A program made the translations under genes and the position numbers. A stretch of DNA of 63,997 nucleotides, counting the filler, from Jimgerdemannia flammicorona (taxonomy: Eukaryota): assembly GCA_003990765.1 (NCBI GenBank). It is 3 parts of 3 records of this genome, joined end to end, with 100 filler letters (N's around TTAATTAATTAA, not from the genome) between each part and the next. Parts side by side here need not be neighbours in the genome. Positions count along the whole stretch, not along the records: positions 21,671 to 43,227 come from RBNJ01001427.1; 2 more parts are not named here. One strand, given 5' to 3'. Below are positions 5,639 through 46,853 of the stretch, piece by piece (within the stretch, counting starts at the first letter, position 1; each line of letters starts with the position of its first letter). The notes beneath the pieces are model-generated. The model was not told the DNA's origin, searched no databases, and was given only the letters and a program-made list of their open reading frames with translations.

Positions 5639-7139
5639 TATAATGGTGACCACAGAATGATAACATCAGCATAGTAGATAGTCTTTTCTTACAAGCTATC
5701 AGATTAGAGCACAAGAAGATCTATGGTATATAAGATGAGCAGTGATGACTAACTGTAAGTCATTGTGACTATAGTATGGGTATCTTGAGAAATATAAAAG
5801 AAGGATCAAGGAACTACAGTAATAGCAATCAACAAGACCCACTAATCTCTAAATAGCTCAAAGACTTACTACAAATGAAATGTCTACTGCTTACCAAATG
5901 TCAAGGTCAAGGAACTACCAAGGTACCTCAGTTGAAGAAAGGATATTCCAAGACATCAGAAGAGCTATAAGGACCTGTACAAGAAGGACTCCTAGTGTTA
6001 ACCTGAGTACTGATAACTCTTATCATTATATCCTCTACTGCTATAAAATGGGAACAAGAATCACTATTACTACTGAATATCTCTAAATGTGGCAGGAGTA
6101 TGAAATAAGAAACCTTCTCTGCCAAGAGTTCCCACAGGCCAGTTCCCAGGAGTTATAAGATACTACTCTTATGAATATATATAAAGCAAGGATAGCTAAG
6201 AAGATTCATCAGATCTTCAGGCATGTACTATGGTCAATCTCCAACTTGGAGTATATTAGAGTCTCAGACTTCAGAGACCTGTCAGCCTGTCATATCAATG
6301 CACTAGAAGCCAGGATGGCTACAGAAGCTCAGTTCACTATCACCCTCAATAGTGATAAAGTAGAAGACTTCGGGCATCCCATCTTCCAGGACAACCTAGA
6401 CCAATTTCTACAAGGATTGATCTCAGTATTCCAAGGTCCAAGCATCTAGGTTAGATCTCTCCAAGACCCCATATTTTGTTCCCTATTTCATAGAAGAGAA
6501 CCTCATAGACTGGAGAGCTCCAGACCTCTTTGTTCCCACTGCTGCCAAACATGATGACATCATTAGCAATGACATCATCCTGCTGACCTATGTAATAATA
6601 ACAAAATGGATGAAATATTCATAGATCTTATCTCCTTTGAAGACATCCTGACCTTAGATGAGGATGAAGCTCCTATAATTCTAAATATTCTGCTCTAAAG
6701 TTCCTTAGTTATACTGAATTATTCCAGCACTATTTTTCTGTATTACTGAAATTATATCAGCATCCTAAACCTATGCAATCATCTGTACTGACCCTGGAAC
6801 TTGGCAGTTTTCCATATCCTGGCATTTTATTTTAGTTATTGGAATTTATATTTAGCTTTATATCTTAGCAACCATTGAATTATATTTTGTATAAATACCC
6901 CTCTTATTTCCTCTGAAATAAAGTTAGTTCCTCTAAGTACAATATAAACAATTCCTTACAAGCAATCTAAAGAGATATGTAACAAGATAGTTTAAAGATA
7001 TGTAAGAAGTTTGAGGACTATAAGATCTTGGGAAGGCACTCCAATAAGAACTTACTTGTAACAAACTTGAGTTAGTCTAAGAGATACACCTTGAAGAGAA
7101 TCTGACATATTTGAAGAACTCAGCAACTACTATATGACA
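5639..7139 (+). repeat. Family A 5' LTR (~1.5 kb)
   Basis: Starts tataatggtgac (mutated TGTAAC...) and ends ...tgaca; aligns with 12824-14317 and 23015-24550. Confidence 0.9.
5880..6698 (+). pseudogene. Disrupted copy of the family A LTR-encoded ORF
   Basis: ORF-track pieces 5880-6086 and 6171-6449 match the intact 272-aa ORF at 23255-24073; same 819-bp span. Confidence 0.88.
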
Positions 7140-12823: not shown

Positions 12824-14317
12824 TGTAACAGTGACTCCAGAATGATAACATCAGTACAGGAGACAACCTTTTCTTACAAGCCACTAGATCAGAGCACAAG
12901 AAGATCATATGACATATAAGATAAGTAATGATAACTAACTGTGAGTCATTGTGACCACAGTATGAGTATCTTGAGAATTATAAAAGAAGGATCAAGGAAC
13001 TGCAGTAACAGCAACCAATAAGACCCACCAATCTCTAAATAGCTCAAAGACTTACTATAAATGAAATACCTACTGCTCACTAAACCTCAAGGTCAAGGAA
13101 CCACCAAAACACCTCAGTTGAAGAAAGGATGTTCTAAGACATCAGAAGAGCTATGAGGATCTGTACAAAAAGAACTCCTAGTATCAACCTGGGTACTGAT
13201 GACCCTTATCATTATATTCTCTACTGCTATAAAATGGGAATAAGGATCACCATTGCTACCAAATACCTCCAAATGTGGCAGGAGTATAAAATAAGAAACC
13301 TCCTCTACCAAGAGTTTCCACAGGCCAGCCCTCAGAAGTTACAAGATACTACTCTCATGGATATACATAAAGCAAGAACAGCTAAGAAGATTCATCAGAT
13401 CTTCAGGCATATACCATAGTCAATCCCCAACTTAGAGTATATTAGAGTCTCAGACTTCAGAGACCTTTCAGCCCACCATATCAATGCACTAGAAGCCAGG
13501 GTGGCTACAGAAGCCCAGTCCACTATCACCCTCAATAGTGATGAAGTAGAAGACTTCTGGCATCCCATCCTCCAGAACAATCCAGACCAATTTCTACAAG
13601 AATTGATCTCAGTATTCTAAGACCCAAGTATCCAGATTAGACCTCCCCAAGACCTCACATTTGTCCCCTATTTCATGGAAGAGAACCTTATAGACTGGAG
13701 AGCTCCAGACCTCCTTATTCCTGCTGCTGCTAAATGTGATGACATTATTGACAATGACATCATCCTGTATGACCTATACAATAATAATGAAACAGATGAA
13801 ACATTTACAGATCTCATCTCCTTTGAAGACATCCTGACCTCAGATGAGAATGAAGCCTCTATGATCCTGAACATTTTGCTCTAAAGTTCCTTGGTTATAC
13901 TGAATTATTTCAGCACCATTTTTCTGTATCATCAAAATTATACTAGTATCTTGAACCTGTGCAACCATCTGTGCTAACTCTGGAACTTGGCAGTTTTCCA
14001 TATCCTGGTATTTTATTTCAGTTATTGGAATTTATATTTAGCTTTATATCTTACCAACTATTGAATTATATTTTGTATAAATACCCCTCTTATTTCCTCT
14101 GAAATAAAGTTAGTTCCTCTCAGTACAATACATACAATTTCTTGCAAGTAATCTAAAGAGATAACAAGATAGTTTAAAGATAAGAAGTTTGAGGACTATA
14201 AGACCTTAGGAAGGTACTCCAATAAGAACTTGCTTATAACAAACTTGAGTTAGTCTAAGAGATACATCTTGAAGAGAATCTGACATATTTGAAGGACTCA
14301 GTGATCACTATATGACA
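12824..14317 (+). repeat. Family A 3' LTR containing the disrupted LTR ORF (13066-13884)
   Basis: TGTAAC immediately after the PPT; ends tgaca; ORF pieces 13153-13419 and 13675-13884. Confidence 0.92.
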
Positions 14318-14646
14318 ATAGATATTCTAAGAGAGTTAGAGAATTCTACTTCTATAGTAGAGTGAATTCTTGATTTCTCTAAGTAAATTATATATCTTAT
14401 AATACTGTCAGAGAAATCTATTAAGTCTTCTTTCTTATCTGCTTCTTATGATCTTGAGTTACTAGAGTTCTAAAAATCTATATCTAGGTCTGATTATAGA
14501 AAGAGATCAAATTCATCTCTTATATAATTTGGATAGTCTGTCTATTCTTTTTTTTTATCTTCTGAGTTGAAAGATTAATAGTCTTTCTTCTCATCTTTGG
14601 AATCAGAGACTTCAAAATATCTGAGATCTATTAATATTATAGTTAT

Positions 14647-21570: not shown

Positions 21571-21670
21571 NNNNNNNNNNNNNNNNNNNNNNNNNNNNNN
21601 NNNNNNNNNNNNNNTTAATTAATTAANNNNNNNNNNNNNNNNNNNNNNNNNNNNNNNNNNNNNNNNNNNN
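21571..21670. other. Artificial contig spacer (44 N + TTAATTAATTAA + 44 N)
   Basis: Six-frame-stop linker flanked by Ns; exactly 100 bp. Confidence 0.97.
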
Positions 21671-21699
21671 CCAACACATACGACAAGGCAAGAAGAACC

Positions 21700-22700
21700 A
21701 TGTGGTGGCCCAAGATGGAAGAAGACCTGCGCCAATTTGTCAAAGGGTGTGACAAGTGCCAAAAACAGAAACAAGATCAGCAAGACCAGGCACCCAGGTC
21801 ATCAAGAATTGAGCCTATCTCCTTCCACTACATCGCAATGGATATCATTGGACCACTACCAGTAACACTATCAGGAAACCGCTATATTATAGTTATTGTA
21901 GACCTCTTCACCAAATGGATAGAGGCAGGAGCATTACAAGAAGCCAATGCCCTCTCTATAGCTGACTTCCTGCACCAAGAAATCATCTGCCGCTACAAGA
22001 CACCAAAGCAAATCACAACAGACCGCGGAACGGAATTTGTCAATGGATTCCACGAGATAATATATCAGAAATACAAGATCCAGCACATCAAGACCACCGC
22101 GTACCACCCTCAAGGAAATGGACAGACAGAGAGAACCAACAAGACCCTCAAGAACATCCTAGCAAAGATCTCAGAGACATATGAGAATTGGGATAACTAT
22201 CTCCCAACCGCCCTCTCTGTCCTACGAGACATATGGTCACAGAGCACACATTTTACCCCAAGAGAGCTGCTCTTCGGAGAAGAAGATTCTGATGGAACCT
22301 CAGCCACAAATCTAGACCTAACTTGGAGATGGGTTGATGCAGAAATCCGGAGACTACACCAAATCAGGAAGAAGGCTGAAGATTACATCACCAAGTCACA
22401 AGCGCTGATAAGGAAGAATGCGGAAAAGAATCACAAGGCCCTAGAACCCATCCGAATTGGAGAAAAGGTTCTACTGTATCGAAATATGGTAGAAGCCTCA
22501 TGGTTGTGAAAACTGGAACCCAAATGGGAAGGACCCTTTTACGTGCAAGATATCAAGGGAACTACCTTCTGGCTTAGAAAAATCTCAGGGACTATACTGC
22601 CTACTACAGTACACAGGAACAGACTCAAGAAGTACCACGAACCTATACAAGAGAAGCAAAACGTAATGACTGCCTGTGAGGTTCTAGTCCGCGAATCGTA
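21700..22700 (+). pseudogene. Family A integrase (269-aa open stretch, one CGA>TGA stop at 22507, continues to stop at 22700)
   Basis: CDKC zinc-finger half, MDIIGPLP, TDRGTEF, YHPQGNGQTERTN (DDE core), then KWEGPF C-terminal domain. Confidence 0.93.
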
Positions 22701-23254
22701 ACAGTATGTCCTGTGACCAGCAGGCTATCTGTCTGGACTATTCTCTAAGGGATATGGCACTGGCAACTACTCATCCGTGAGACTTTCGCAGTCAGAGGAG
22801 TTCGAACCGTCAACTGATTGGTCAAGATCAGAATCAGGCCCTTGCTCTATATGAAGGGAGCGACCCTTCACTATCACGCCAAAATACAAAGGGAAGATGC
22901 TAGCCCATAAACACTAGTTTTCGACCCCTTGCCAGAGTTTATGGGATCAGCAAATTTTTCAGGACTGGACCAATGAATAAGGATGCTCAGGAAGATCCTT
23001 ATTCAGGAGGAAGATGTAACGGTGACCCCAGAATGATGATATCAGCACAGGAGACAGCCTTTCCTTACAAGCCACCAGATCAAAGCACAAGAAGATCATA
23101 TGGTATACGAGATGAGTAATGATGACCAACTGTGAGTCATTGTGACCACAGCACAAGCATCCTGAAGAATATAAAAAGGATCAAGGAACTGCAGTAGCAG
23201 TAATCAACAAGAACCACTAATCCCAAAATAGCTCAAAGACTTACCACAAACGAA

Positions 23255-24073
23255 ATGCCTGCCACCTGCCAAACCTCAAGATCAAGGAACCACCAAGGCA
23301 CCTTGGTTGAAGAAAGGATGTTCCAAGACATCAGAAGAGCCATGGAGATCCGCTCAAGAAGGACTCCTAGTGTCAACCTGGGTACTGCAGACCCCTATCA
23401 CTTCATCCTCTACTGCTGTGAAATGGAAACAAGGATCACCATCACCACCGAATGCCTCCAAATGTGGCAGGAGTGCGAAATAGGAAACCTCCTCTGCTGG
23501 GAGTTCCCACAGGCCAGCACCCAAGAGCTACAAGATGCCACTCTCATGGATATACATGAAACGAGGACAGCTAAGAAGATCCATCAGATCTTCAGGCATG
23601 CACCATGGTCGATTCCCAACTTGGAGTATGTTAGAGTCTCAGATTTCAGAGACCTGTCATCTCGCCGCATCAATGCACTAGAAGCCAGGGTAGCTACAGA
23701 AGCCCAGTCCACTATCACCCTCAACAGTGAAGAAGTAGAAGACTTCTGGCACCCCATCCTTCAGGACAACCCAGACCAATTCCTGCAAGGATTGATCTCA
23801 GTATTCCAAGGCCCAAGCATCCGAGTTAGATCCCCCCAAGACCCCACATTTGTCCCCTATTTTGTGGAAGAGAACCTCATAGATTGGAGAGCTCCAAATC
23901 TTGTCCCCGATTTCTCCGCTGAACGTGATGACGTCATCGGCGATGACGTCATCCCGCGTGACATCGACATACGCGAAGCACGCGAAAACGACGAATTCGC
24001 GGATCTCATCTCCTTCAGTGATGATGATGATGATGATGATGAAGCCCCCATGGTCCTGAACTTTCTGCTCTAA
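23255..24073 (+). CDS. Intact 272-aa protein of unknown function encoded inside the family A LTR (U3)
   Basis: ATG-to-stop ORF wholly within LTR 23015-24550; TATAAAA at 23170; same length in two other LTR copies; acidic C-terminus. Confidence 0.8.
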   Translation: MPATCQTSRSRNHQGTLVEERMFQDIRRAMEIRSRRTPSVNLGTADPYHFILYCCEMETRITITTECLQMWQECEIGNLLCWEFPQASTQELQDATLMDIHETRTAKKIHQIFRHAPWSIPNLEYVRVSDFRDLSSRRINALEARVATEAQSTITLNSEEVEDFWHPILQDNPDQFLQGLISVFQGPSIRVRSPQDPTFVPYFVEENLIDWRAPNLVPDFSAERDDVIGDDVIPRDIDIREARENDEFADLISFSDDDDDDDEAPMVLNFLL

Positions 24074-24312
24074 GTTCTTTGTTACACTGGACAATGCCAG
24101 CACCGGTATTCTCATGTAACACCAGATAATGCCAGCACTGGTATTCTGAGGTGACGCAAAATTGTTCCAGCACTGGCATTTTGATGTGACACTGGATAAT
24201 GCCAGCATCCTGAACCTGTGCAACCAACAATACCAGCCCTGGAACTTAGTAGTTTTAGTTATTGAAATTTATATTTAGCTTTATATCTTAGCAACCATTG
24301 AATTATATTTTG

Positions 24313-24345
24313 TATAAATACCCCTCTTATTTCCTCTGAAATAAA
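24313..24345 (+). promoter_or_regulatory. Likely LTR core promoter (TATAAATA) and poly(A) signal (AATAAA)
   Basis: TATAAATA at 24313-24320 and AATAAA at 24340-24345, conserved in all three family A LTRs. Confidence 0.6.
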
Positions 24346-24550
24346 GTCAGTCTTCTCAGTGCAATACACACACTTCCTTGCAAGCAATCTAAGAGATAAC
24401 AAGACAGTTAAAGATAAGAAGTTTGAGGATTATAAGACCTTGGGAAGGCACTCCAATAAGAACTTGCTTATAACAACTTGAGTTAGTCTAAGAGATATAC
24501 CTTGAAGAGAATCTGGCGTATTTGAAGGACTCAGTGACCACTACGTGACA

Positions 24551-26395
24551 ATACATATATACTCAAATGGTCTTAGCTTTGAGAGAGCATCTCCTTGGTA
24601 CACAAGCTCTTTACTATCAGAAAACATCTATTTAACTAATACTTATTGCAGGAATAACTAGATAATCTCAGACCATATTGCTCAAATTAGGAAAGTCTAT
24701 TTGACATCTCTATAAATTTAAAATATAAAGAATTTTAGAGCTAAAAACTTGAGATATTTAATAAAAATAATTATGAAAATTCTTACCTTCCATCAATCTA
24801 ATATACATATTAATACTCTTTAATAAGACTACTTGATCAGTAGATAAATACATTGTAAGCTTATCTATTGAAGATTCTCTTTTTCTTTTTTTACTATAAA
24901 GATACTATATAATAGAATCATTTACATAGTTATCTAAACTATAGTTAGAATTTGGTAGTTTTTCTAATATATATTAATAATTAATTACTCTACTTTTTTT
25001 AATAAATTCTTTTTTCCAGCCTTGATCTTTATAATATTAAAGTTTTAATTATAGATTTAAAATTAATTAGATATTCAAATTATACTTCACTTATCAGTAC
25101 TAATAGAAAATACAGAAGTATCTATTTTTAAATAATATTTTTTAAGTTTTTTCAAAGCTACTTCAATAGCTTCCTTTTGTCTTAAGAGAAATATATATAT
25201 TTTTGTTCTCCAATAAGTCTAGTAGATCTTTAAGTTGATCAATCAAAAAGATTGTATACTAGAATTGCAGAATATATCATTGAAAACTTTTGCTAAACAA
25301 CTTTTTTTATATATTTATTAAAATACTAAAGTAAAATAAAAAGTAAAAGTAGTTGGCCACATATTCTGAAGGGTAGAATAGTAGTTAGAATAGTGGTTAA
25401 AATTAGTTCAACCCCACTAACCACTTGTGGAAAGACAATCTACCTTCTATCAGTTGAGCACCTCTATACTCTCTAATAGGATTATATGATTACTGATAAG
25501 GTAAATAGTAAGTTTGTCTATTGATAGCAGTTTTTCTACTAATGACTTTCTTTTTCTCTTTTTGCTGAAATAAATATGTAATAGAAAAGATTCTTTAGTA
25601 TATTTATCTGGACTTTAGCTAGAATCTTATAGTAGTATATAGTTTTTCCAGTATATTTCAATTATGACTTACTTGGCTTCCTTAATATAGTACTGCTCCC
25701 AGTCCTGATCTTTATAGTATTATAGCTTTAAGTATAGATCTAATACTGTTTTGAGAAAGAGAGTGTGTTTTGCTGAGATTTTCTTTTTTTAAAGAAGTAA
25801 CTGCTATGCTGACATGCCTATACTAATTGAGTATATAGTAGTATCTGTTTTGGAGTAGTATTTTCTAAGCTTGCTCAGAGCAATCTCTATGATATCTCTC
25901 TGATCTAAACTAAATCAGAAATTATTACTACTCTCTAGCCTGTTCTTGAGCCTATCCTCTGGTTAATTAATTAAAATATTATATATCAATATTATAAAGC
26001 TTATTGTTAAAGTAGTTTGTTTAACTATATTCTTCATATAATTATTAAAATACTGATAGTTAAATTATTATATTACTGTATAGAGGCAGACAAAATAAAT
26101 ATAGAGTCAAAGCAATTATCACTTACTTTCAAAACTCTGACAATATTTCTTGGTATATCTCACTTACTTTTATCTATAGCCTCATTCTATATTTCCTTAT
26201 TAAAAACAATTATGAAATCTTGGTTTTTTTTTTTTATTTTTAAAAAAATTCCATTTTTAAATTAATTAACAATCCTCAGTCATCTAAAACAATTTGCTTC
26301 AGCCAATCAAAAAAGAGCACATACTATAGCAAACTCTAGCATATACTAGATCATTATAAATATTAAGTTCTAATATATATAGATATCTAATATTA
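24551..26395 (-). pseudogene. hAT transposase remnant, C-terminal part (interrupted by element B)
   Basis: Minus strand gives ILD*WK, a GTAAG intron donor, then FPNLSNMV*DYLVIPAIS (hAT dimerization domain), and AIEVALKKLKKYY. The middle portion may contain other decayed DNA. Confidence 0.7.
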
Positions 26396-28457
26396 TGTAA
26401 GCGCACAACCCCCAAACCACCGAAATTACATGTCACCCTCTGAATAAGCCACTGAAATCACATGCAATCTCTGAACAAATCTGGAAATCACCTGCTTGAC
26501 CACAAAGCTGAGTCAAACCGAAGTCACAGTGCACAAAGCTAAGTCAATATGAAGTCACAGAACACAAGATTCACACAAACAGAATCTTACCAATCAGGAC
26601 CAAAGGCATATATACCAAGCACTGAGATGCATAAATCAGAGAACCAAAACAAACAACAACCATAACTTCCAAACACACAAACATGACCACCAAGATCTAT
26701 ACCCATATCTATGCTGACATTTGGAATGCCATTATCAACTGAGCCACACCCCCTCTGCCCCTCATGAATATCTATAGTCTAGCACCCCTCTACTTTATGG
26801 AAGCCCAATAAAATGCTCTGAACATGTTTAGCGAGGCCCACCGAATTGGACAAATCTCAAGCTACTACCAGATCAGCTGCCTCCTGGAAGACATGATCGA
26901 ACACAACCATGATACAGACATTACCCAGATGTCTCAACACCAGAAGCTCATCACCCGCAAACATCAAGAACTCTTCTATGAGTATAGCACTGTTATTCCC
27001 TGCCTCTGAGTTACCACAGCGGAAATGGTTGCTACCCTGTCCTATGGCCAAATCGACGACATGATATAAGAACTCAACCACAAGTACCTTTAGTATGTCA
27101 AAACCACAGACAGAACCTTCCCACACCCCAATGATCATATTCTACAAATGCCCCAAGTTGGATATACCATGAAGGACATCTATGATATAATCCACTTTGA
27201 TGAAGACAAAGCAGAAGACAATGATCCCTCTGACACTGACATGACCTCTAGCCAAGGATCTCTGCCAACCCTGATCACACTACCAACCTTGCCAATGAAC
27301 TTACAACAATTTATAACAGTATACAAGACTTATTGGGACAATGACCACTGGCACGAATACCAATCCGCGTTCACCCCTGACTACTTCAACTATAATGAAG
27401 AGATCGGAGAACACAACCTATACCTCCAGACAACCCTCAAGATCAAACCAACCACTCCACCACCTGAGTATAAGCAATATGAACCACAGCCACCAGCTTA
27501 CTACAACCCCATGACTCATAGTACTGTAACTTACAGGAGGTATGCAGACAGCGAATCTGATGAAAGTGAAGATGATGCACCCCTCCTTCGCCCACCAACA
27601 CCTTACCCAGCATATGAGACAGATGATGTCATCTTGTGGGACAGAGATGAAGTTCCAATGTATTATTACCTTAGTGAACAAGGAGAAGTAATCCGCGAAC
27701 CACTTTTCCTAGACAACTACTTCATTAGAGATGATGCAATTGATGGTGATGTCATCAAGGACTACCCAGACAGTGCCTAAACTATAAATAGCCTAGCAGT
27801 CATAGTATAGTTAGATTAGCCTTATACGACATGACTGTGAACTGACTCAGCAGTCAGACAATCTCTTGACATATCAGATCACACTTGTACTACATGACTG
27901 TATTCTAACTCAGCAAGGCACTTAGTGCTACATCCATATCTAACATAGTCCAGATAGCCCCTCACTAGTATAAATACCCCCTCCCCCAGACCTCAGAATC
28001 TCAGACCTGAACAATCCGAACACAACTTCTGAGCACTTCCCCACAATATCCCTTCATACAACTACTCCTAATATAGCAATATCATGAATAGCAAATAAAC
28101 CTATTCAATAACCCACAAACCACTCTTAAGTAAATCCACTCCCCGTTAGGTCCCACTCCTAACCCTGTCACGAAATTTCCTAATTGGGTATTATCTGCAG
28201 CGATATACCAATTCAACTAAGCTGGTCTTAGTTTCTTGAACTTCCTGAAACATGGAAAATCCTGAATATCCAGAACTAGTCCAAAAAAGGACTTTGGTTG
28301 AGACATCAACCTGAACTTGAAATCAATAAGCATAGAGGATGTACTCCATACGAAATTGATCTTGACCATAAGAAAACAGTCTTCCAGAATATCCAGAACC
28401 TCCAGAAAACCTTTCCAGAACTATGTAACAGTTACCTTAAAAAGCAACCCTCTTACA
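26396..28457 (+). repeat. Element B 5' LTR (2062 bp)
   Basis: Direct repeat of 34975-37036; differences are mostly transitions. Confidence 0.95.
26683..27780 (+). pseudogene. Element B LTR-encoded ORF (365 aa when stops are reverted)
   Basis: ATG at 26683 is in frame with track ORFs 26824 and 27148; no frameshifts. Stops are complemented by the other LTR copy (35262-36359) or are CGA>TGA type. Confidence 0.82.
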
Positions 28458-28460
28458 ACT

Positions 28461-28470
28461 TGGTAGCAGT
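28461..28470 (+). other. PBS, initiator tRNA-Met 3'-end type
   Basis: TGGTAGCAG three bases after the LTR end. Confidence 0.75.
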
Positions 28471-29420
28471 AGTTTACAATCCAATTCCGCTTCAAGACAC
28501 TTCCTCATCCTGCTACAAACCCTTCTGAGAATTCCTACAAGTTGATATAAAGCCCAACCTCTGAACTGGAATCTATCCTGAACCATCTGACAATCTGGAG
28601 AGAATTGAACCTAACGTACAAGGACAATTTGACCTCCACACCTGCAACAAGTGGGACAAACTTCATTCAAAGAAAGAAGTACTCCAGTTAAACCAGCAAA
28701 TAGATGAAACCCTATTCACTGAACTCCTTGCACTATACCCAGCAAGTCATAACAAAGAAGGTCTTATTGAAGCCTTCTTTACTCTTCTCAACAAGAGTTT
28801 TGTCAGCTCCACAAATCTGAGTGACCTAGGACAACCAGCAGTAGTCTTTCTAGCCTTAGTTCCTCATGAAGCCCAAGCCTCTGTAGCCAAGTGGCTCAAC
28901 TCTACCAACTTTCACCACACCAGGACCAAGGCCTGCCTTATACTACCGATTCCAGAACAGCAAGGCCCACTATATCCTTAAAGAAGAAGTAAGAGAAACC
29001 CTTCATCAACTACCTGACCCTGAACCTGAAGCAGGCCCTGCTACAGCCCTACCTGAATCTGAAACCAATACCGAACCTGAACTTGACTTTGAATTAAGTC
29101 CATCTGAAATCAGATATACAACTGATTCCATCTACTTTGATGCTGAGCAAACCCAATTACACAAGGACCAAACTAAAGAGGAGGAGGAGTATCTTGGTGA
29201 ATTCAATCCCGGATACACCACTGAAGGAGAAGCACCTCCATTAGGACAGAATACACCTACACAGCAACAAACAGCTATCTATCAAGCCCTCACCCCAGAC
29301 CCACAACTACTACTCCAGCAACTTACACAGACCCAAAGAACCCCATCACACTCTGCACCAGTACCTCAAGTAGTACTAGTAACACCACTACCAGCAGTCC
29401 AACCGCCTCCAGTAAACAAC

Positions 29421-32400
29421 ATAGTGAACCAACAGATTCTAGACCTTATAGCCCAGGTAGCCATAATGGCAGCAACCATTACTACCTTAGCTGAACAGAC
29501 CCAATCTACCAAAAATCTGAGCCTACCTACCTTCAATGGTACTGCACAAGAAGTCCAAAGCTTCATTAACGTAGTTGACACCAACTTCGAAGCCAATCAA
29601 TGGACTAATGAGTGAGTTGCTGACTGTGTTTTGACAAACAATCAAGACCACACTCTGGAACAACTCTTTGCTACCACTACAGCCTATGTCCACCAAGTTG
29701 TTACATTCTTCCAAGGACCTGTCAAAGAATGGTGGCGAACCCTTCCTGAAAAACCCCTAACATGGGATACCCAACCTGCAGTAGTTGCTCAGAATGCAGC
29801 AAACAATGCCCCAGGATATGGAGCCCATCCTGCAGCCCCTGGACTCAAACAACTCATGATTGTACAATACTGCAGTGAAACCATGATTGCTGAATCCCGA
29901 GTAAAACTCTATAACCTCAAATTCGATGTATATGGCAAAGAAGAATTCAAAACCTTCTGTACAAAACTCAAGTCACTCCTGAATACTGTTGGTCTAGGAT
30001 ATATCGCCAATGATGAAGCATGAAATGATACAAGAGCAGACCATTTATTTGATGCCCTGCCTGAATGGCTTACTAGAAAAATCTGAGAACAAGGCCACCC
30101 AGTTAGTTGTGATCACCAACAATGGTGCCTGGTAAGAATCAAGACTATGGTCAAGTGAATCCTAACAGCCAGACCAATTCTGCCCTGAAGGCAATTTAAC
30201 AACAAGGAAAGAACTTGGACCAAGAAAGAAGAACCCAAGCATGAAGCAGCCCGAGCTCCCTCCACATCCACATCTTGGACACCTAGAAATCATAAACCCA
30301 CCCAGCCAAGTACCTTCAAGAAACTTACTGAAGGTGAAAGGAATGAACTACGAAGAAGTGGAGCATGCTTCTATTGCCGAAAGACAGGACACATAGCCAG
30401 TACCTGCCCTAACTAAAAACCCCGAACAGCAATATGAGCAACAGTTACCACTCTGCACCACCTCAACAACCTGACCACCAGAACACTAGACTTTGTCAAG
30501 TTAAGACAAACTGCTAAGGCCCCAGCCAAAGGAAGTCAAAAAGCAGCTGGATATGACCTGTATGCAGCCGAAGAAGCTACAGTTTCCAACCGAGAAGTCA
30601 AACAAGTTTACACAGGAATCAGCATCCAAATCCCTGAAGGACATGTTGGAAGAATATGCTATCACAGCAGCCTAGCATTGAAAGGACTCTCAGTAGAAGG
30701 AGGAGTCATTGATGAGGATTATACAAGTGAAATTATTGTCCTCATCTGAAACCATAGTTGGACACCCTTCAAGATCCCTATAGGTTTCTGCATTGTCCAG
30801 ATCTTATTTGAAAAAATCGAGTCAACCCTGATAGTCAAGGAAGTCCCTGAACTACTACCTACTATCTGAGGATCTAAAGGATTTGGCTCATCAAACAAGG
30901 CCCCAGCCCAACCTACCATGAGCAAAGAAGAACAATTCTATAAGAAGATCGAAGACAGATATGTACCAAGTGGCCAATGCCCTCATGGTATTGGAATGTA
31001 CTCTTTTCGAATGATTGATGATTGCTTCTCTTGTATCAATGAACTGGTACAAAGAAGAGCCAACAGAAGAAAAGCCCCTATAACTGAAATCACCACCATT
31101 GGATCAGACAAACTGCTCATACTTAAGGCTTTTGTCAATCGAGCACCTGTCAAGATTATGATAGACAGTGGTGCCTCAGGCAACTTCATCAGTGAAGAAA
31201 CAGCCAACAGACTTAAGGTCTTCACCTCTCCAGTACAGCAAACTCAAGTAGTTGCTACAGCTGATAGAACCTCATATATTATTAGCAAAGAAGTCTGCAA
31301 TCTGTCCTTCTGAATTGGCAATTACTGAGTACATGTTACTCTCCAAATCGTTCCACTTCCTGATAATGAAATCATCCTTGGGACTCCATGGTTAAAACAA
31401 GAGAACCCCATGATCGATTGGGTAAACCATTCTCTGACCATCAAGAAAGGATGCCACAACTTCAAACTGCAAGGTGAAAAGGACCCACTTAATTCTAGCA
31501 ACCCTGGACCAAAGATTACCCACATCAATAAGCTGCAACTCAAGAAATTGACCAAGAAATGCCCTCTCTTGCCATCTCCATCCATCCATCCAAAGGAGAA
31601 CCCAAGAACTCTGAAGAAGATTTTTCCAAAGTCAACAGCCATGTCAGACCACTACTCCAGAAATTTCGAGACATATTCCCATAGAAGCTCCTGAAAGGCC
31701 TACCTCCTAAATGAGTAGTAGACTATATCATCAAGACTATCCCAGATACCAAACCAGCCTTCAAGTCAATCTACCACATGTCTCTGAGAGAAATCAATGC
31801 ACTCAAGAAAGAAATTGACAAACTCCTAGAACAAGGATTCATCAGACCCAGCGTATCACCTTATGGTGCACTAGTCCTATTTGTTGTCAAGAAAGGAGGA
31901 GACCTGCGAATGTACATTGACTACTGTGACCTCAATGAACAGACCATCAAGAACTGTTGTCCACTACCCAGAATCGATGAAATATTCGATAGGCTCACCA
32001 ATCTGCAATTCATGAGCTCCTTTGACCTGCGAAATAGTTACTGGCAAATTGCCATAAAAGAAGAAGACATCTACAAGACAGCTTTCTGAACTTGCTATGG
32101 ACACTTCGAGTTCCTGATTATGCCCTTTGGCTTAACTAATGCTTCTGCAACCTTCCAGACCCTGATAAATACTATCCTGCACCCATACCTGGACAAATTT
32201 GTTGTTGTCTACATTGATGACATCCTAGTCTTCAGCAAAACCCTGGAGGAACATCTTGAACACCTTGAACTAGTACTACTGAAACTCCAAGAAAACCGAC
32301 TTTTTGCAAAACTCAGTAAGTGCAAATTTCTCCTGAAAGAAATCCAATTCCTTGGATACATTGTCACACCAAATGGAATTAAGGTAGACCCCAGCAAAAT

Positions 32401-34552
32401 ATCTGTAATCAAAGATTGGCCCAGACTCAAGAAGCTGAAAGACCTCCAGTCATTCCTGAGATTAGCAAACTATTACAGGTGATTTGTTGCCAACTTTGCT
32501 AAAATTACTACTGCCCTCATCCAAATGACCAAGCACAGCAAGAAACAAGAACAACCCTGAACCATAAAACAAGAGAAAGACTTCAACAATCTTGTAACTT
32601 GGGGACCCAAGCAAGATACAGCTTTTCAAGCACTGAAAGATGCCCTGATAACCACTCCAGTACTTCAAGCGGCAAATCCTACCCTACCATATGAAGTTAC
32701 TACTGATGCCTCTGACCTAGCTCTTGGAGCAGTACTCATGCAAGAAGGACACCCTGTGGCCTATCACTCCCACAAGTTCAATAATGCTGAAATTAACTAT
32801 GTAACCCATGAGAAGGAAATGCTAGCCATCGTAGACACTCTGATTAAATAGTGACCATACTTAGAAGGAGTACACTTCACTATATTGACTGACTACAAGT
32901 CATTAGTCAATATCAAGACACAGGCTACCCTTTCTCGAAAGCAAGCCAGATGGATGAAAGTCCTCACCAACTTCAACTACGAAATCCAGTACTGCCCTGG
33001 CAAGGAAAATATTATTGCCAATGTAATCTCCAGACCACTAATCAAAGAAGTTATTCAAACTCTCACCTTGGTTACAAACTCCATCATGGAACAAATTATC
33101 ACAGCATGTACTGATGATAAGAAAGCTCAAGCACTTCAAGAAATCCTGAACAGTGATGATGCCGACAAGTATACACAGTATCATCAATATCAACTGAAGG
33201 ACAATACTATCTACTACAAAGATAGACTGTATGTCCCAAACAACTGAGACCTCCGAAGGACTATCCTATTCAAATGTCATGATGCCCCTACAGCTGGACA
33301 TTTAGGATTCGACAAATGCTATGAAGTTATCTCCCGAAACTTCTATTGGCCCTGCATGACAGATCAGCTCAAAACCTACGTCACTTCTTGTGATGCCTGC
33401 CAATGAAATAAGTCCTCAACACTAGCAAAACCTGGCTTACTTCACCCTATTCCAGTACCATCTGCGAATTGGGAACAAATCTCGATGGACTTTATTGTAC
33501 AACTACCCTGAACCAAGAACAGGAAAGATGCAATTGTTGTCTTTGTAGATTACCTCAGCAAACAAGCCCACTTTGTGCCTACCACCACTACTGCAACAGC
33601 ACCGGATATAGCTACACTCTTGTTTGATAACATTTTCTGCTATCATGGTCTTCCTAAGATCATTGTTAGTGACCAAGACCCGAAATTCACCAGCCATTTT
33701 TGGAAAGCCCTTCATGCATACCTTGGAACAAAACTTGCACTATCCACAGCCTTTCACCCTGAAACTGATGGCCAAACTGAAAGAATGAACCAAACTCTGG
33801 AACAAATGCTAAGGAACTATGTTTCCTACAGACAAGATGACTGGCATGAACACCTTACTGCAGTTGAGTTTGCCTATAACAATAGCAAGCAAGTCTCTCT
33901 CAGAATGACCCCATTCTTTGCCAATACTGGACAAAACCCAAATACCCCTTTGACACTTATCCGAACTACTGAAGAACCCTCTACAGTCAAAGCTGTTGAA
34001 GAATTCCTGCTCTGAATGTGTAATCTAAGCCAGATCGCAATCGAGAATTTATCACGAGCTCAAGAACAACAGTTACAGTATATTAACCAACACCATTGAG
34101 AAGAAACCTTCGATATTGGAGAGAAAGTTCTACTAGACATCTGGGGATACCGAGTTGACAATCTCAAGCACAGACCATCTACAAAGCTGAACAGCAAGTT
34201 CATTGGACTATTTAAAGTCATTGCACAAGTCTCTCCTACCTCCTACAAATTGGTGCTACCAGATACCATTAAGATTCACCCAGTCTTTAATGTTCAACAC
34301 CTCAAGCGATACAATGAGAATGATGATGAACTATTCCCTAACCGAACCATGAAACCACCTACACCTGTCATTATTAATGACCAAGAAGAGTACGAAGTTG
34401 AACAAATCCTCAACAAATGTGGCCACAAGAACCACCCAGAGTACCTTGTCAAATGGAAAGGTTACCCAATCTATGATGCAACCTGAGAACCCAAGACCAA
34501 CCTCCAGAATGCTACTGACCTAGTTCAAGAATATGATTCCTTGAACAACTAA
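29421..34552 (+). pseudogene. Element B gag-pol polyprotein (disrupted)
   Basis: PTFNG gag motif, CFYCRKTGHIASTC knuckle (~30366), IDSGASGNFI protease, YIDD RT (32209), TDAS RNase H, FHPETDGQTER integrase, EYEVEQIL...YLVKWKGY chromodomain. Confidence 0.95.
30486..30893 (+). pseudogene. dut: dUTPase domain between gag zinc knuckle and protease of element B
   Basis: AAGYDL, HSSLA (RSS mutated), GVIDEDYTSEI, CIVQI and *GSKGFGSS, in frame with gag and PR. Confidence 0.92.
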
Positions 34553-34974
34553 AACCAAATACTCCGCACCTATCTATACATACTATATATTATCCTCCCA
34601 AACACTATAATTATCGAAAATCAAGAACTCAGCAAAACAAGACAAGAATACTGACCCTCTGGAAAAATAGCAAAACTGAAAGCAAGCCTATTCTCCCTGT
34701 ACCACTGGTGGAAAACAAGGCATAGATATTTAAGAAGATCTCTTAGAGGAAATTCTCCAACAGTGAATGACGTCAGAATCACTTCTGGCGCATGGCATCA
34801 AACACATGACTCTTTAATATATGAATCCAACACATTAGGCAACTGTACTACGAGCATGCCACTTTCTGAGAAAAATGGACTTCACCAGACTTTTGACCTC
34901 CTAAATGGTGTAACAACACTAGAACAAAATTAGAAGGCCCCAATGAGGACGTCGAAAGCTAAGAAGGGGAGAGT

Positions 34975-37036
34975 TGTAAGTGCACAACCCCCAAACCACC
35001 AAAATTATATGTCACTCTCTGAAGAAGCCACTGAAATCACATGCGACCTCTGAAAAAATCTGGAAATCACCTGCTTGACCACAAAGCTGAGTCAAACCGA
35101 AGTCACAGTGCACAAAGCTGAGTTAATATGAAGTCACAGAACACAAGATTCACACAAATAGAATCTTACCAATCAGGACCAAAGGCATATATACCAAGCA
35201 CCGAGATGCGTGAATCAGAGAACTAAAACAAACAACAACCACAACTTCCAAACACACAAACATGACCACCGAGATCTATACCCGTATCCGCACTAATATT
35301 TGGAATACCATTGTCAACTGAGCCACACCCCCTCTGTCCCTCATAAATATCTATAGTCTAGCACTCCTCTACTTCATGGAAGCCTGATGGAATGCCCTGA
35401 ACATACTTAGTGAGGCCCACTGAATCAGACAAATCTCAAGCTACTATCAGATTGGCTGCCTCCTGGAAGACATGATCGAACACCACCATGATACAGACAT
35501 TACCCAGATATCTCAACACCAGAAGCTCATCGCCTGCAAACATTGAGAACTCTTCTATGAGTATAGCACTGTTATTCCCCATCTCTGAGTTACCACAGCG
35601 GAAATGGTTGCTACCCTGTTCTATGGCCAAATCGATGACATGATACAAGAACTCAACCACAAGTACCTTGAGTATGTTGAAACCACAGACAGAACCTTCC
35701 TACACCCCAATGATCATATTCTGCAAATGTCCCAAGTTGGATATGCCATAAAGGATATCTATGATATAATCCACTTCAATGAAGACGAAGCAGAAGACAA
35801 TGATCTCTCTGATACTGACATGACCTCTAGCCAAGGATCTCTGCTAACCCTGATCATACCGCCAACCTTGCCGATGAACTTACAACAATTCATAACAGCA
35901 TACAAGACTTATTGAGACAATGACCACTGGCACGAATACCAACCCACGTTCACTCCTGACTACTTCAACTACAATGAAGAGACCGGAGAACACAATCTGT
36001 ACCTCCAGACAATCCTCGAGATCGAACCAACCACTCTACCACCCGAGTACGAGCAACATGAACCACAGTCACCAGCTTACTACAACTCCATGACTCATAG
36101 TGCTGTAACCTACAGGAGGTATGCAGACAGCGAATCCGATGAAAGTGAAGATGATATACCCCTCCTTCACCCACCAATACCTTACCCAGCATATGAGACA
36201 GACAATGCCATCTTGTGGGATGGAGATGAAGTTCCAATGTATTATTACCTTAGTGAATAAGGAGAAGTAATCTGCAAACTACTCTTCCTAGACAACTACT
36301 TCATCAGAGATGATGCAATTAATGGTGATGTCATCGAGGACTACCCAGACAGTGCCTAAACCATAAATAGCCTAGCAGTCATAGTATAGTTAGATTAGCC
36401 TTGTATGATGTGACTGTGAACTGACTCAGCAGTCAGACAATCTCTTGACATGTCAGATCACACTTATACTATGTAACTGCATTCTGACTCAGCAAGACAC
36501 TTAGTGCTACATCCATATCTAGCATAGTCCAGATAGCCCCTCACTAGTATAAATACCCCCTCCCCCAGACCTCAGAATCTCAGACCTGAACAATCTGAAC
36601 ACAACTCCTGAGCACTTCCCCATAATATCTCTTTATACAACTACTCCTAGTATAGCAATATCATGAATAATGAATAAACCTATTCAATAACCCACAAACC
36701 ACTCTTAAGTAAATCTGCTCCCTGTTAAGTCCCACTCCTAACCCTGTCACAAAATTTCCTAATTGGGTATTATCTGCAGCAATTTGCCAATTCAACTAAG
36801 CTGGTCTTAGTTTCTTAAACTTCCTGAAACATGGAAAATCCTGAACATCCAGAACTAGTTCAAAAAAGGACTTTGGTTGAGACTTCCACCCGAACTTGAA
36901 ATCAATAAGCGTAGAGAATGTACTCCATATGAAATTGATCTTGACCATAAGAAAACAGTCTTCCAGAATATCCAGAACCTTCAGAAAACCTTTCCAGAAC
37001 TATGTAATGGTTACTTTAAAAAGCAACTCTCTTACA
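34975..37036 (+). repeat. Element B 3' LTR containing the disrupted LTR ORF (35262-36359)
   Basis: Follows the PPT; TG...CA ends; followed by TSD TATTA. Confidence 0.95.
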
Positions 37037-37041
37037 TATTA

Positions 37042-37775: not shown

Positions 37776-40700
37776 TATAAGTACACAATCTCTAAGCTAC
37801 TAAAATCATATATCACTCTCGGAACCAATTCAGAAATCATATGTAAGATCACAAAACAAGTTACTGAAGAGATCACCTGATTATATAAAATATGTCAGCA
37901 AGTATGAGAACTTACTACTAAGATATAAGAATATCAGAAGAAGTACTACAACTATAAGACTGACCCTGAACCTCTATTCATTAGATAACCAGTCTTAGTA
38001 TACTATGCTATCATAAAAGAAAACTAAAGTATCAAACTCAAATTGAAATAAGAAGAACCCTATCTCATCTATCAAAGGTTCATGAACTGTACTTATCAAC
38101 TCAAGACTAAGATATATTACAACTATATAAGATCTTATTACTTAGCAGAAGTAAAATGCATTTGAATAACTCTGTTCACTCTATCTGTGTCACCTCTATT
38201 GAAGAATGACAGATGCTTCATCTGAACTCAAGAAAGTCAACATTATCAAAACTAATATCAAGTCTATCTATGTGATAGATATTACTACTAGAAATTGTCT
38301 CAAATTATAGAAAATATTATTTCTGAGAGATTCAAACTCCCAGCCATGACAATGAGAGCTCTCACCCTAGATAAGAATGGCCAGTTCTTACAAATATACC
38401 AATAGTCCAAAAAAAAAAGAGAACCAAGGCCTATTATTCCTATGCAACCATCTCTACTCAGGATAGCTTTAATTTTACAAGGGGTAGATATGATAAAACC
38501 TTAAAACTAATAACATTAGAAGTCAGGAAACTTCTCAGACTTCATCAAAAGATAATGTCATCAATGGTGACTTTATCAAAAGAATATCCAGACAGTATCT
38601 AAATCTATAAATAGCTTAGTAGTCATTAGTATAGTTAGATTAGTCTTATATAATATAACTATATACTAACTCAGCAGTCAGATAATCTCTTGATATATCA
38701 GTTCATACTTATATATTCTGACTCAGTAAGATACTAAGTATTATATCTATATTTAGCATAGCCCAGATAGCCTCCCATTAGTATAAATACCTCCTCTCCC
38801 AGATCTCAGAAACTCAAACTTGAATAGACTTCAAATAGATCTATATATAAGAACTCCTGAACACTTCTCTACAATATCTCTTCACATACTACTCCTAGTA
38901 TAGCAATATTATGAATAGCAAATAAACTTATTTAATAACCCACAAACTACTCTTAAGTAAATCTGTACTCTGTTAGATCCTACTCCTAACCATATTATGA
39001 AATTTCCTAATTGGGTATTGTCTGTAGCAATATGCCAATTCAACTAAGCTAGTCTTAGTTTCTTGAACTTCTTGAAATATAGAAAATCCTAAACATCCAG
39101 AAAATCCTTTCAGAACTATATAATGGTACTTTATAAGTAATCTTCTTACAACTTAGTAATAGCAGTTTACAATCCAATTCTGCTTCAAGATGCTTTCTCA
39201 CTTTACTACAAAACCTCTATGAGAATTCCTATAAGTTGATATAAAGCCCAATCTCTGAACTAGAATTCATTCTGAACTATCTAACAATCTAGAGAGAATT
39301 GAACCTAATGTATGAGAACAATTTGACCTCTATACTTATAACAAATGGAACAGATTTTATCTACAAAAATAAGTACTCCAATTAAATCAGCAGATATATG
39401 AACCCCATTCACCAAACTTCTTACTCTATATTCCACAAGTCAAGATAAAGAAGGTCTTATAGAAGCCTTCTTTACTCTTCTCTTTTTTTTTTCTTTTTTT
39501 TTTCTCTACTTCTTTACTCTTCTCAATAAGAGTTTTGTTAGCTCTATAAACCTGAGCAATCTAGAATAACCAGCAGTATCTTTCTAGCCTTAGTTCCTTA
39601 TAAAGCCTAAGCCTCTATAGCTAAGTAGCTCAACTCTACTAACTTTTACCATATCAGGACTAAGACTGCCTTATACTACTACTTCCAGAATTGTAAATCC
39701 TGCTATATTCTTAAAGAAGAAGCAAGAGAAACTCTTCACCAACAACCTGACTCTAAACCAGAAGCAGGTCCAGCTATAACCCTTTCTGAATCTAGAACTA
39801 ATACTGAACTAGATCAAACTCTTGATTTAAGTCTATCTAAAATCTAATATATAACTAATACTATCTACTTCAATACTGAGCAAACTCAATTATATAGAGA
39901 CCAAAGTGAATAGGAGGAAGAGTATCTCAGTAAATTCAATCTCAGATATACTATCAAAAGAGACATACTCCTATTCAGACAAAACATATCTATAGTACAA
40001 CAGATAGTTATCTATCAAGTCCTTACACCAGACCTGCAATAGTTACTCCAGCAACTTATACAGACTCAAAGAACACTATTATACTCTATATCAGTAACTC
40101 AAGTCATATCAGTAATCTCACTACTAGTAGTCTAACTACTTCTAATAAACAATATGGCAAACCAACAGATTCTAGACCTCACAGCTCAGATAGCCATAAT
40201 GATAGCAACTATTACTGCCTTAGCTGAACAGACCTGACCAACAAAAAGTCTGAGCCTACCTATCTTCAATAGTACTGTACAGAAAGTTCAAAGCTTCATT
40301 AGTATAGTTGATATTAATTTTGAAATCAATCAATAAACCAATAAGTGAGTTGCTGACTACTTTCTAACAAACAATTAAGAACATACTCAGAACAACTCTT
40401 TGCTACTACTATGGCTTATATCTGCTGAGTTATTATATTCTTCTGAGAATCTGCTAAAGAATAGTGGTAAACTCTCTCTAAAAAATCCCTCATATGGAAT
40501 ACCCAATCTGTAGTTATTGTTCAAAATGCAGCAAATAATATCCCTGGATATAGAGACCACCCTATAGCCTCTAGACTCAAATAACTCATAATTGCTCAAT
40601 ATTACAGTGAAACTCTGATCACTGAATCTCAAGCTAAATTCTGCAACCTCAAATTTGATATATATAGTAAAAAGGAATTTGAAACCTTCTATACAAAACT

Positions 40701-46847: not shown

Positions 46848-46853
<6 letters not shown>

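Follow-up and report, generated by a model that had tools for sequence, protein, structure and literature searches.

Positions 26683-27780 of the window (the whole stretch of 63,997 nucleotides from Jimgerdemannia flammicorona analysed here, filler included) are, in the reading that we favour with moderate confidence, a dead copy of a genuine protein gene lying wholly within the U3 region of a long terminal repeat (LTR), and this gene is probably a distant homologue of an intact gene in the LTRs of a second retrotransposon family of the window, family A. Retrotransposon LTRs are usually taken to supply a promoter and a terminator and to encode nothing, and they are masked by annotation pipelines. 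The relevant features are collected in Table 1.

Table 1. Features of the two LTR families; positions count along the window
Feature	Position	Strand	Remarks
Element B 5' LTR	26396..28457	+	2,062 bp, TG...CA; ends read directly; 92.2% identical to 34975-37036
Target-site duplication TATTA	left 26391..26395, right 37037-37041	.	read directly
Element B 3' LTR	34975..37036	+	polypurine tract GAAGGGGAGAG just before
Primer-binding site TGGTAGCAG	28461..28469	+	directly after 5' LTR; read directly
Element B internal region	28458..34974	+	gag, dUTPase, protease, RT, RNase H, integrase, chromodomain (Pfam); every frame broken
LTR of second, older B-like element	37776..39150	+	heavy transition mutation; equivalent of ~27004-27718 (most of the gene) absent
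B LTR gene, 5' LTR copy	26683..27780	+	365 codons and stop; dead, 5 in-frame stops; in U3
B LTR gene, 3' LTR copy	35262..36359	+	dead, 7 in-frame stops
TGAGTCA, upstream of first TATA	26509..26515	+	read directly; equivalent TGAGTCA in A LTR at ~23133
TATA-like element GCATATATACC	26606..26616	+	putative promoter P1; 77 nt upstream of ATG; in both B LTRs
GTATAAATACCCC, main LTR TATA box	27968..27980	+	proposed promoter P2; 188 nt past stop codon
AATAAA	28094..28099	+	read directly; candidate poly(A) signal of LTR
GATGATGTCATC	27622..27633	+	encodes DDVI in acidic tail of B; one transition from palindrome GATGACGTCATC
Second TGATGTCA site	27747..27754	+	within RDDAIDGDVI of B
Two perfect GATGACGTCATC palindromes, family A	23927..23953	+	15 bp apart; encode DDVI-G-DDVI
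Family A LTR, third copy	23016..24558	+	least decayed; CpG o/e 0.43
Family A LTR gene, intact (P0003)	23255..24073	+	272 aa; dN/dS 0.22 vs L001
Family A LTR gene, decayed, in element A 3' LTR	13066..13881	+	4 stops
Family A LTR gene, decayed, in element A 5' LTR	5880..6695	+	tblastn 60% identity, gapped

Results

Element B is a decayed chromovirus

Element B (26396-37036) is a true insertion of a Ty3/gypsy chromovirus, with 2,062-bp LTRs, a TATTA target-site duplication (TSD), a polypurine tract (PPT) and a primer-binding site (PBS), TGGTAGCAG, which we take to be a match to the initiator tRNA-Met. The coding hallmarks of a chromovirus are also present, namely protease (Pfam E-value 1.7e-7), reverse transcriptase (RVT_1, 1.4e-21), RNase H (RT_RNaseH_2, 9.3e-28), integrase (rve, 1e-6) and a C-terminal chromodomain (Chromo, 5.5e-13). 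In family A, by contrast, no chromodomain could be detected in the six frames of two copies, in keeping with the original prediction that a chromovirus and a non-chromovirus lineage are being compared. The two LTRs of element B differ at 160 positions, 153 of which are transitions and 7 transversions. A second, older B-like element has left an LTR further downstream; 26396-27003 of the B LTR aligns with 37776-38391 in a purine/pyrimidine-recoded blastn, and 27719-28275 aligns with 38539-39102 in plain blastn. Rfam and tRNA scans of the whole window returned no matches.

The B frame was destroyed after insertion

The frame lies on the plus strand at exactly the positions at which it had been predicted, with 365 codons followed by a stop codon. 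It was destroyed after insertion by strongly transition-biased C-to-T decay. In-frame stops stand at codons 20, 43, 109, 129 and 137 of the 5' copy and at codons 20, 42, 54, 95, 109, 218 and 333 of the 3' copy, and at nine of the ten stop-bearing positions the stop differs only by C-to-T or G-to-A from a sense codon in the other copy or in the database fragment P0011; the exception is codon 137, TAG against GAG. Both copies have TGA at codons 20 and 109, and the merged frame consequently keeps two stops. The expectation that merging would give one frame therefore stood as to its length and fell as to its being fully open. Arginine had been supposed at these two codons, and P0011, an independent fragment, does read R at both. 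The original observation on this frame is confirmed in part.

Among 1.84 billion protein representatives the B protein has only two relatives, both partial. P0011 (128 aa) is open over B residues 1-128 at 82% identity, and P0010 (247 aa) is open at 64% identity over 247 aa. When neutral drift to ~64-67% identity was simulated, 67 to 195 of 5,000 frames of 228 codons remained open (1.3-3.9%); gene-calling databases contain open frames only, which biases any argument from open relatives. A repeat protein of 436 aa (P0012) also matched B residues 111-147 at E 3e-4 through six repeats, and we judge this to be a repeat-inflated chance match. No DNA copy of a B relative was confirmed among 74 pattern stretches of metagenome contigs found with the B alignment scan, or among 8 stretches of viral contigs. 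A PDB sequence search with the B protein gave no match, P0010 had no usable match in the ESM Atlas (structure matches at TM <=0.30), and Foldseek with the B N-domain model, which is too poor for the outcome to carry weight, gave 0 matches at E <=0.001 (best 0.75).

It could be argued that the B frame is no gene but a long stretch of a large U3 in which chance or a skewed base composition has kept stops away, and that only family A codes for a protein. This would fit the many stops in both copies and the scarcity of relatives, as well as the disordered Atlas model of P0010 (pLDDT 0.39) and the far lower depth over the ORF part of the B LTR (0.65-4.7) than over its R-U5 part (~1,850 and 410) in two public contig sets of uncertain kind. 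Nevertheless, we consider it very improbable. C-to-T or G-to-A change alone accounts for all but one of the stop positions, both relatives are open at identities at which the neutral simulation keeps few frames open, and the frame matches the selected gene of family A better than any shuffle or decoy (see below). Since the other frames of the equivalent A region have 7-21 stops and the relatives at 64% and 82% identity are open, the B frame appears to be more than chance. We prefer to regard it as a dead gene; for selection on the B gene itself the support is indirect only.

Family A holds an intact and selected LTR gene

The least decayed of the three family A LTRs carries an intact gene, and the family A LTR protein set comprises P0003-P0009 and P0013. 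Selection on this family had been claimed, and comparison with L001, a 63%-identical metagenome copy with a 323-aa open frame, bears it out: dN/dS is 0.22 for the gene as a whole (N-domain 0.17, centre 0.115, tail 0.66), which indicates purifying selection, whereas out-of-frame controls reach 1.0-1.4 and contain 7-21 stops. In the databases, six relatives at 60-88% identity have open frames, and residues 142-212 form an invariant central block with W-x-P-x-L-x-x-N, F-Q-G-P and Y-F-x-E-E-x-x-I-D-W-R. L001 was the only DNA relative confirmed, from 380 stretches in metagenome contigs; none was confirmed from 332 stretches in viral contigs or 269 in prokaryote genome contigs. All copies with DNA context sit in an LTR or LTR-like setting, as a gene specific to LTRs should.

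Searches of protein families and structures gave this gene no name. Pfam returned no family for P0001-P0003 at E up to 1 and none at cut-off for 9 further relatives (0 of 12 pass), the PDB sequence search with the A protein gave a single match at E 0.64, and the best ESM Atlas score of the family A protein was 0.89, below the bar of 0.9 and to unnamed clusters. An origin of the LTR proteins from gag or pol was also considered and rejected, as no internal match in the window scored better than E 0.76 with tblastn.

The A and B proteins are probably homologous

The motif pairs on which the relationship had been proposed by eye are present in both sequences, and hhalign recovers the same alignment at E 0.0081 when the A profile is enriched to nine sequences (score 26.3; 108 colinear columns, A 20-140 against B 7-125), with a probability of 4.9% by its own estimate. 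None of 110 full column shuffles and none of 109 N-domain shuffles came up to that score, and 100 decoys, real ORFs of the window, all stayed below the A/B score with either profile used. When the whole window was scanned in six frames with the A-profile HMM, the best non-A match was the B N-domain (E 0.0096), the next lying at 1.3. The tail motif alone gave E 0.015 and was equalled by 0 of 150 shuffles. Judged from these comparisons, A and B share a colinear N-terminal domain of ~110-130 residues (significance about 0.01) together with the tail motif R-D-D-[VA]-I-x-x-D-V-I.

Both proteins have a near-neutral, predicted-helical N-domain and a strongly acidic remainder, and both are predicted to be soluble, with no hydrophobic span (maximal 19-residue Kyte-Doolittle mean 1.3 in 7 proteins). 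The tails, described beforehand as acidic and Pro-rich, are indeed acidic (net charge -17 for A 213-272 and -15 for B 251-365), but only that of B is rich in proline (16 of 115 residues, against 4 of 60 in A). The best-conserved block of A, residues 141-212, has no significant match in B, where fragments such as F-x-H-P...I-L-Q appear only in a low-confidence extension; hhalign in global mode finds nothing, and its greedy extension past the N-domain is untrustworthy. The two AlphaFold models (pLDDT 37.5 and 53.4) are too poor for fold comparison. Predicted helices are colinear under the hhalign alignment and carry little weight, because the models are of low confidence.

Two real but unrelated genes, captured or arisen independently in two gypsy lineages, would also look alike in some of these respects, through chance, through helical and acidic composition or through the same host factors (TGACGTCA palindromes, TATA). 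Here the alignment by eye fares less well: BLASTP of A against B is not significant (E 0.29-0.47), the first hhalign comparison, with a seven-sequence A profile, gave a score of 19.8 (E 0.074) that 11 of 200 shuffles reach, and the reciprocal search with the B profile retrieves no A protein in the window or among the 1.84 billion representatives. The dUTPase is placed differently relative to the neighbouring pol segments in elements A and B, and excerpts of two studies describe the independent gain of extra modules in such elements (PMC2864245, PMC5408684). In addition, the tail motif may be convergent at the DNA level, because the palindrome reads DDVI on both strands. We nonetheless think independent origin unlikely. 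The score rose from 19.8 to 26.3 on enriching the A profile and then exceeded every composition-preserving shuffle and every decoy, the unbiased scan of the window ranks the B N-domain first, and the matches run colinearly through N-domain and tail, within LTRs that show the same order of landmarks. That the B LTR gene is a distant homologue of the A LTR gene is thus probable, not proven, and the original interpretation, an old and selected LTR-specific family common to both lineages, is supported in part.

The two LTRs share an order of landmarks

In both families the LTR runs from a first TATA to an ATG ~80 nt further on, then to the ORF, to TGACGTCA-type palindromes encoding DDVI and to an identical 13-nt TATA. 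The first TATA lies 151 nt (A) and 210 nt (B) into the LTR, the distance from it to the ATG is 88 and 77 nt, and that from the stop codon to the second TATA is 239 and 188 nt, the gene being located in U3 between the upstream TATA and the main LTR TATA in A as in B. A TGAGTCA upstream of the first TATA is presumably an AP-1/Gcn4-type site. The 13-mer GTATAAATACCCC is exact in 3 of 3 A LTRs and in both B LTRs, and with at most one mismatch it has 7 matches against 0.11 expected. It is the exception in LTR DNA that otherwise cannot be aligned between the families, as had been noted (best blastn match E 0.032, not colinear). The palindrome 12-mer pattern matches three times in the window against 0.02 expected, each time in an LTR gene tail, and both tails carry a paired D-D-[VI]-I motif that such palindromes encode. 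What maintains the likeness of the A and B tails may be the DNA, in the form of TGACGTCA palindromes.

The same gene might be expressed in another way, with genomic RNA starting at the upstream TATA and the ORF, inside a very long R, serving as first cistron and leader ORF before gag. The upstream TATA is indeed placed 77-88 nt before the ATG in both families and is kept in L001 despite saturated synonymous sites. However, no other DNA of the A and B LTRs is as well conserved as the downstream TATA, which is identical over 13 nt and for this reason is suggested to be the main promoter. Moreover, with an R of 1.4 kb the 5' LTR would have its poly(A) signal well removed from the cap, and there, as retroviruses in general indicate, such a signal would be hard to ignore. 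Expression as a leader ORF is accordingly a reading to which we give little credence.

Discussion

We favour a model in which each LTR, judging from its sequence, would be a self-contained transcription unit. The upstream TATA (P1), ~80 nt before the ATG, would drive an mRNA that is terminated by the poly(A) site of the same LTR, while the downstream TATA (P2, GTATAAATACCCC) would drive the genomic RNA. If the LTR is such a unit, the gene would be present twice per element and would survive in solo LTRs. The acidic tail would be encoded by DNA of dual use, its DDVI repeats being the coding face of the TGACGTCA-type palindromes, which probably act as enhancer sites for P2. The protein would most likely serve the element in trans, as an accessory or regulatory factor; our preferred guess, weakly held, is a transcriptional activator with an acidic tail, or else an anti-silencing or RNA-handling factor. 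A wider proposal, which we put forward as possible though rather doubtful, is that such LTR-resident genes form a family common to distinct Ty3/gypsy lineages, in which each LTR, solo LTRs included, would be a complete gene with promoter and poly(A) site, the product would regulate the element, for example as an acidic activator on its own TGACGTCA sites, and the DNA coding for DDVI would double as an enhancer of the genomic promoter.

If two gypsy lineages do carry a selected U3 gene, solo LTRs can stay protein-coding, coding and regulation constrain the same LTR sites, and LTR elements other than retroviruses have accessory genes placed like sag of mouse mammary tumour virus (MMTV) or bel2 of foamy viruses. 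An LTR gene family would be a retrotransposon counterpart to the genes that complex retroviruses carry in U3. With the intact 272-aa A copy there is a concrete orphan protein in which a regulatory function can be looked for. The reach of the finding is limited, as the B gene is present here only as a fossil and the distribution of the family looks narrow.

In a narrow phrase search of open-access text, no protein gene was described as lying inside the LTR of an LTR retrotransposon, fungal or other, outside the retroviruses. Extra proteins are known from such elements. Cer1 of C. elegans, a Ty3/gypsy element and thus also a gypsy-type LTR retrotransposon, likewise has an additional regulatory protein, CERV, which is lineage-specific and belongs to no known family, but CERV is encoded by a spliced Cer1 mRNA, and the excerpt consulted does not state an LTR location (PMC10309623). 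Excerpts on bdelloid rotifer LTR retrotransposons report a diversity of ORF3 (PMC5408684), and those on fungal chromoviruses an 'add. ORF of unknown function' and dUTPase domains (PMC2864245). These gypsy-type elements resemble ours in their dUTPase, in extra frames without known function and in modules common to different retroelement lineages; their extra frames, however, lie between pol and the 3' LTR or are pol domains, and none is stated in these excerpts to lie inside the LTR. The B frame does not belong with env-like ORF3 either, as it encodes no hydrophobic span and lies inside the LTR, downstream of the PPT.

Among retroviruses, the foamy virus transactivator Tas has an internal promoter, and by analogy an element-encoded activator made from a second promoter would fit the mechanism that we prefer. 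Pfam revealed no sequence similarity between foamy virus proteins and the A and B LTR proteins. As in our elements, an accessory gene of foamy viruses overlaps U3, and reverse transcription places a copy of it in both LTRs; the bel2/Bet frame, according to the excerpt consulted, extends into U3 of the 3' LTR (PMC11362648), running into the LTR from the internal region, whereas here the whole frame is inside the LTR.

The closest analogue of the B and A LTR genes appears to be sag of MMTV, which lies in U3. The MMTV Sag protein is a membrane glycoprotein. The A and B LTR proteins are not members of its family, having no Pfam family match and no membrane span (7 proteins), and MMTV is a vertebrate retrovirus whereas the elements described here are Ty3/gypsy retrotransposons without env. 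The likeness is one of arrangement. In the excerpts consulted, the sag/naf frame of MMTV occupies U3 of the LTR, which has several promoters, one of them, within U3, being said to drive Sag (PMC9412291, PMC4667437); a coding frame inside U3, more than one LTR promoter (proposed here from the sequence) and a gene duplicated together with its LTR are the features that our elements would share with it.

Results

Self-comparison of the window, which is eukaryotic and transposon-rich, revealed two families of LTR retrotransposons. Their types make a fungal host likely, as a tentative lead. By their Pfam domains (protease, RT, RNase H and integrase in each), elements A and B belong to Ty3/gypsy, and their pol regions share 27-50% identity in alignable stretches. 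The C-terminal end of B is a chromodomain (E 5.5e-13, Pfam); none was detectable in A in six frames of two copies. Element B is a clean insertion, with TG...CA LTR ends, a 5-bp flanking duplication, a polypurine tract upstream of its 3' LTR and TGGTAGCAG directly after its 5' LTR. Both elements carry a dUTPase domain, whose apparently differing position relative to a neighbouring segment common to both pols would fit independent or rearranged acquisition.

Features of the window, with their positions
Feature	Position	Remarks
Element A LTR pair	5638-7140 and 12823-14318	87.6% identity; self-comparison
Third A copy, 3' part	21671-24558; own LTR 23016-24558	self-comparison
Intact A gene	23255-24073	272 aa; in third A LTR
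Element B LTR pair	26396-28457 and 34975-37036	2,062 bp each, 92.2% identity, gapless; self-comparison
TATTA, duplication flanking B	26391-26395 and 37037-37041	
B LTR frame, 365 codons	26683-27780 (5' LTR); 35262-36359 (3' LTR)	both dead
dUTPase domain, A and B	9326-9793 and 30438-30746	Pfam, E 2.7e-26 and 2.2e-19
Segment common to A and B pol	9092-9211 (A); 30927-31046 (B)	before dUTPase in A, after it in B
Older, second B-like element	37776-39150 (5' LTR) and 39081-42418	adjoins B; internally 78% identical
561-aa open frame	45102-46784 (+)	no Pfam match; several long frames overlap on both strands
Long A/T homopolymer-like tract	~46800-47000	adjoins 561-aa frame
Imperfect tandem repeats	50300-52700	65-80% identity; start-to-start spacing ~300-880 bp
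Non-LTR-type reverse transcriptase fragment	55633-57294 (-)	RVT_1, E 8.5e-16
359-aa open frame	58692-59768 (-)	no Pfam match; adjoins RT fragment
44-N runs, n=4	21571-21614, 21627-21670, 43228-43271, 43284-43327	paired 12 bases apart, at filler joins; one pair cuts third A copy

For the 561-aa frame, a host gene and low-complexity sequence are both possible readings. The 5' LTR of the older B-like element, seen only with purine/pyrimidine recoding, has no counterpart of ~27004-27718, a stretch that makes up the bulk of the LTR gene. Contigs from two public sets cover the B LTR unevenly: summed depth is ~1,850 and 410 over R-U5 (27851-28365) and only 0.65-27 over the U3/ORF side (26306-27850), which hints that abundant relatives have R-U5 in common with B and a U3 that differs or has diverged further.

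The original prediction located a 365-codon frame in the B LTR, and this frame was indeed found in both LTRs. It had further described one frame of 365 codons obtained by merging the two copies. The 5' and 3' copies contain five and seven in-frame stops, respectively, and each has TGA at codons 20 and 109, so that the merged copies are still not open. The database fragment P0011 (128 aa, 82% identity to B), which is independent of the window, is open with R at both codons, and a second fragment, P0010 (247 aa, 64% identity), is open across B residues 116-365. The frame that was described thus exists, as the remnant of a dead gene, and two of the codons in its merged form have to be inferred. 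The B LTR pair differs by 153 transitions, 67 of them in CpG context, and 7 transversions (160 differences), and the A LTR pair by 167 transitions versus 9 transversions; the old A LTRs have a CpG observed/expected ratio of 0.00-0.02, against 0.43 for the A LTR with the intact gene. This decay looks like cytosine-deamination-type hypermutation, whether RIP-like or methylation-driven C-to-T.

The family A LTR frame is, as judged from its relatives, a gene under selection. Six database proteins with 60-88% identity to the A protein are all open, as is a 323-aa frame with 63% identity on a metagenome contig, L001. Compared with L001, the window copy shows saturation at synonymous sites (pS 0.64) and a dN/dS of 0.22 for the whole protein, with 0.17 in residues 1-140, 0.115 in 141-212 and 0.66 in the tail; out of frame, the same nucleotide alignment yields dN/dS of 1.0-1.4 and 7-21 stops. 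Support for the B frame as a gene is indirect. When 5,000 frames of 228 codons were evolved neutrally to ~64-67% protein identity, 67 (kappa 2) to 195 (kappa 20) remained open; together with the open B fragments this lends modest support, because gene-call databases list open frames only. Searching 1.84 billion representatives with the B profile returned P0010, P0011, a repeat protein (P0012) and nothing else, suggesting that the B family is narrow. P0012 (436 aa) was rejected as a relative, since its E value of 3e-4 is probably inflated by a six-fold repeat of a motif like B residues 119-135.

We consider it probable, short of confident, that the A and B proteins are homologous. BLASTP found no significant match between them (E 0.29-0.47), the best being a tail motif, RDDVIGDDVI in A and RDDAIDGDVI in B, and the B profile never retrieved A from the window or the 1.84 billion representatives. 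HHalign of 7 A against 4 B sequences scored 19.8 (E 0.074), a value reached by 11 of 200 column shuffles. With an A profile enriched by L001 and one X-read window copy, the score rose to 26.3 (E 0.0081, 108 columns, 27% identity) and the colinear alignment, the very one proposed by eye, was unchanged. No full shuffle (0/110, maximum 23.0) or N-domain shuffle (0/109, maximum 24.5) reached this score, nor did any of 100 decoys, which peaked at 17.7 and 21.8 with the two profiles; these came from the 110 of 122 window stop-to-stop ORFs kept after leaving out 12 that overlapped LTR genes or contained X. In a six-frame scan of the window with the A-family HMM, the best non-A match was B at 26665-27063 (E 0.0096, model positions 7-142), followed by a match at E 1.3. 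The C-terminal parts on their own gave the tail motif at E 0.015 (0/150 shuffles as good). The central block of A, its best conserved part, has no clear partner in B. AlphaFold models (pLDDT 37.5 and 53.4) are of insufficient quality to compare folds; both are all-helical, with four of five helices corresponding under the profile alignment, and Foldseek, queried with a low-confidence model, found nothing.

The A and B LTRs do not align by blastn, as predicted, and their landmarks follow the same order. A TATA-like element lies 151 (A) or 210 (B) nt into the LTR, the ATG 88 or 77 nt further on, and after an ORF of 819 or 1,098 nt a second TATA follows the stop codon by 239 or 188 nt. This second TATA is a 13-mer, GTATAAATACCCC, identical in all three A and both B LTRs and present in L001; allowing one mismatch, it has 7 matches versus 0.11 expected. 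The upstream TATA is retained in L001 even though synonymous divergence is saturated.

Palindromes of the type TGACGTCA, which we take to be CRE/ATF-type sites, occur near the 3' end of both ORFs. All three window matches to GATGA[CT][GA]TCATC fall in LTR-gene tails (0.02 expected), as do 8 of 12 TGAYRTCA sites, and one CpG transition separates each of the decayed forms TGACATCA and TGATGTCA from the palindrome. Since the palindrome reads D-D-V-I on either strand, the likeness of the tails may reflect conservation of the DNA, as a putative binding site, no less than conservation of the protein.

No Pfam family reached its cut-off for any of 12 LTR proteins and relatives, and a PDB search found no sequence relative of A or B. 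Hydrophobic spans are absent (maximum 19-residue hydropathy 1.3). In intact sequences the N-domain is near-neutral in both (net charge -1 to -2) and the remainder strongly acidic (-8 to -25 per segment). The tails, described originally as acidic and Pro-rich, are acidic in both; richness in proline, and in aromatic residues, was found for B.

Discussion

The original prediction envisaged a selected LTR protein family shared between chromovirus and non-chromovirus lineages. Selection is borne out for A, and the family probably extends from an element with no detectable chromodomain (A) to a chromovirus (B). The gene would form a self-contained unit within U3, with its own TATA and the LTR's poly(A) signal, and might thus be expressed from either LTR and also from solo LTRs. 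Alternatively, the genomic RNA may begin at the upstream TATA, which would make the frame a leader cistron. The product would be a soluble accessory protein that serves the element in trans; its build, a helical domain and then an acidic tail studded with hydrophobic residues, suggests, as a weak guess, a transcriptional activator or other regulatory factor.

Phrase searches of open-access text found no report of a comparable gene inside the LTR of a fungal or other non-retroviral element. Extra genes described for gypsy-type elements include CERV (PMC10309623) and the ORF3s of bdelloids (PMC5408684), and an 'add. ORF' and dUTPase are described in fungal chromoviruses (PMC2864245); the text excerpts of these papers state no position inside the LTR. 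The nearest analogue is sag/naf of MMTV, a frame in U3 with promoters within U3 (PMC9412291), followed by bel2 of foamy virus, which extends into U3 (PMC11362648).
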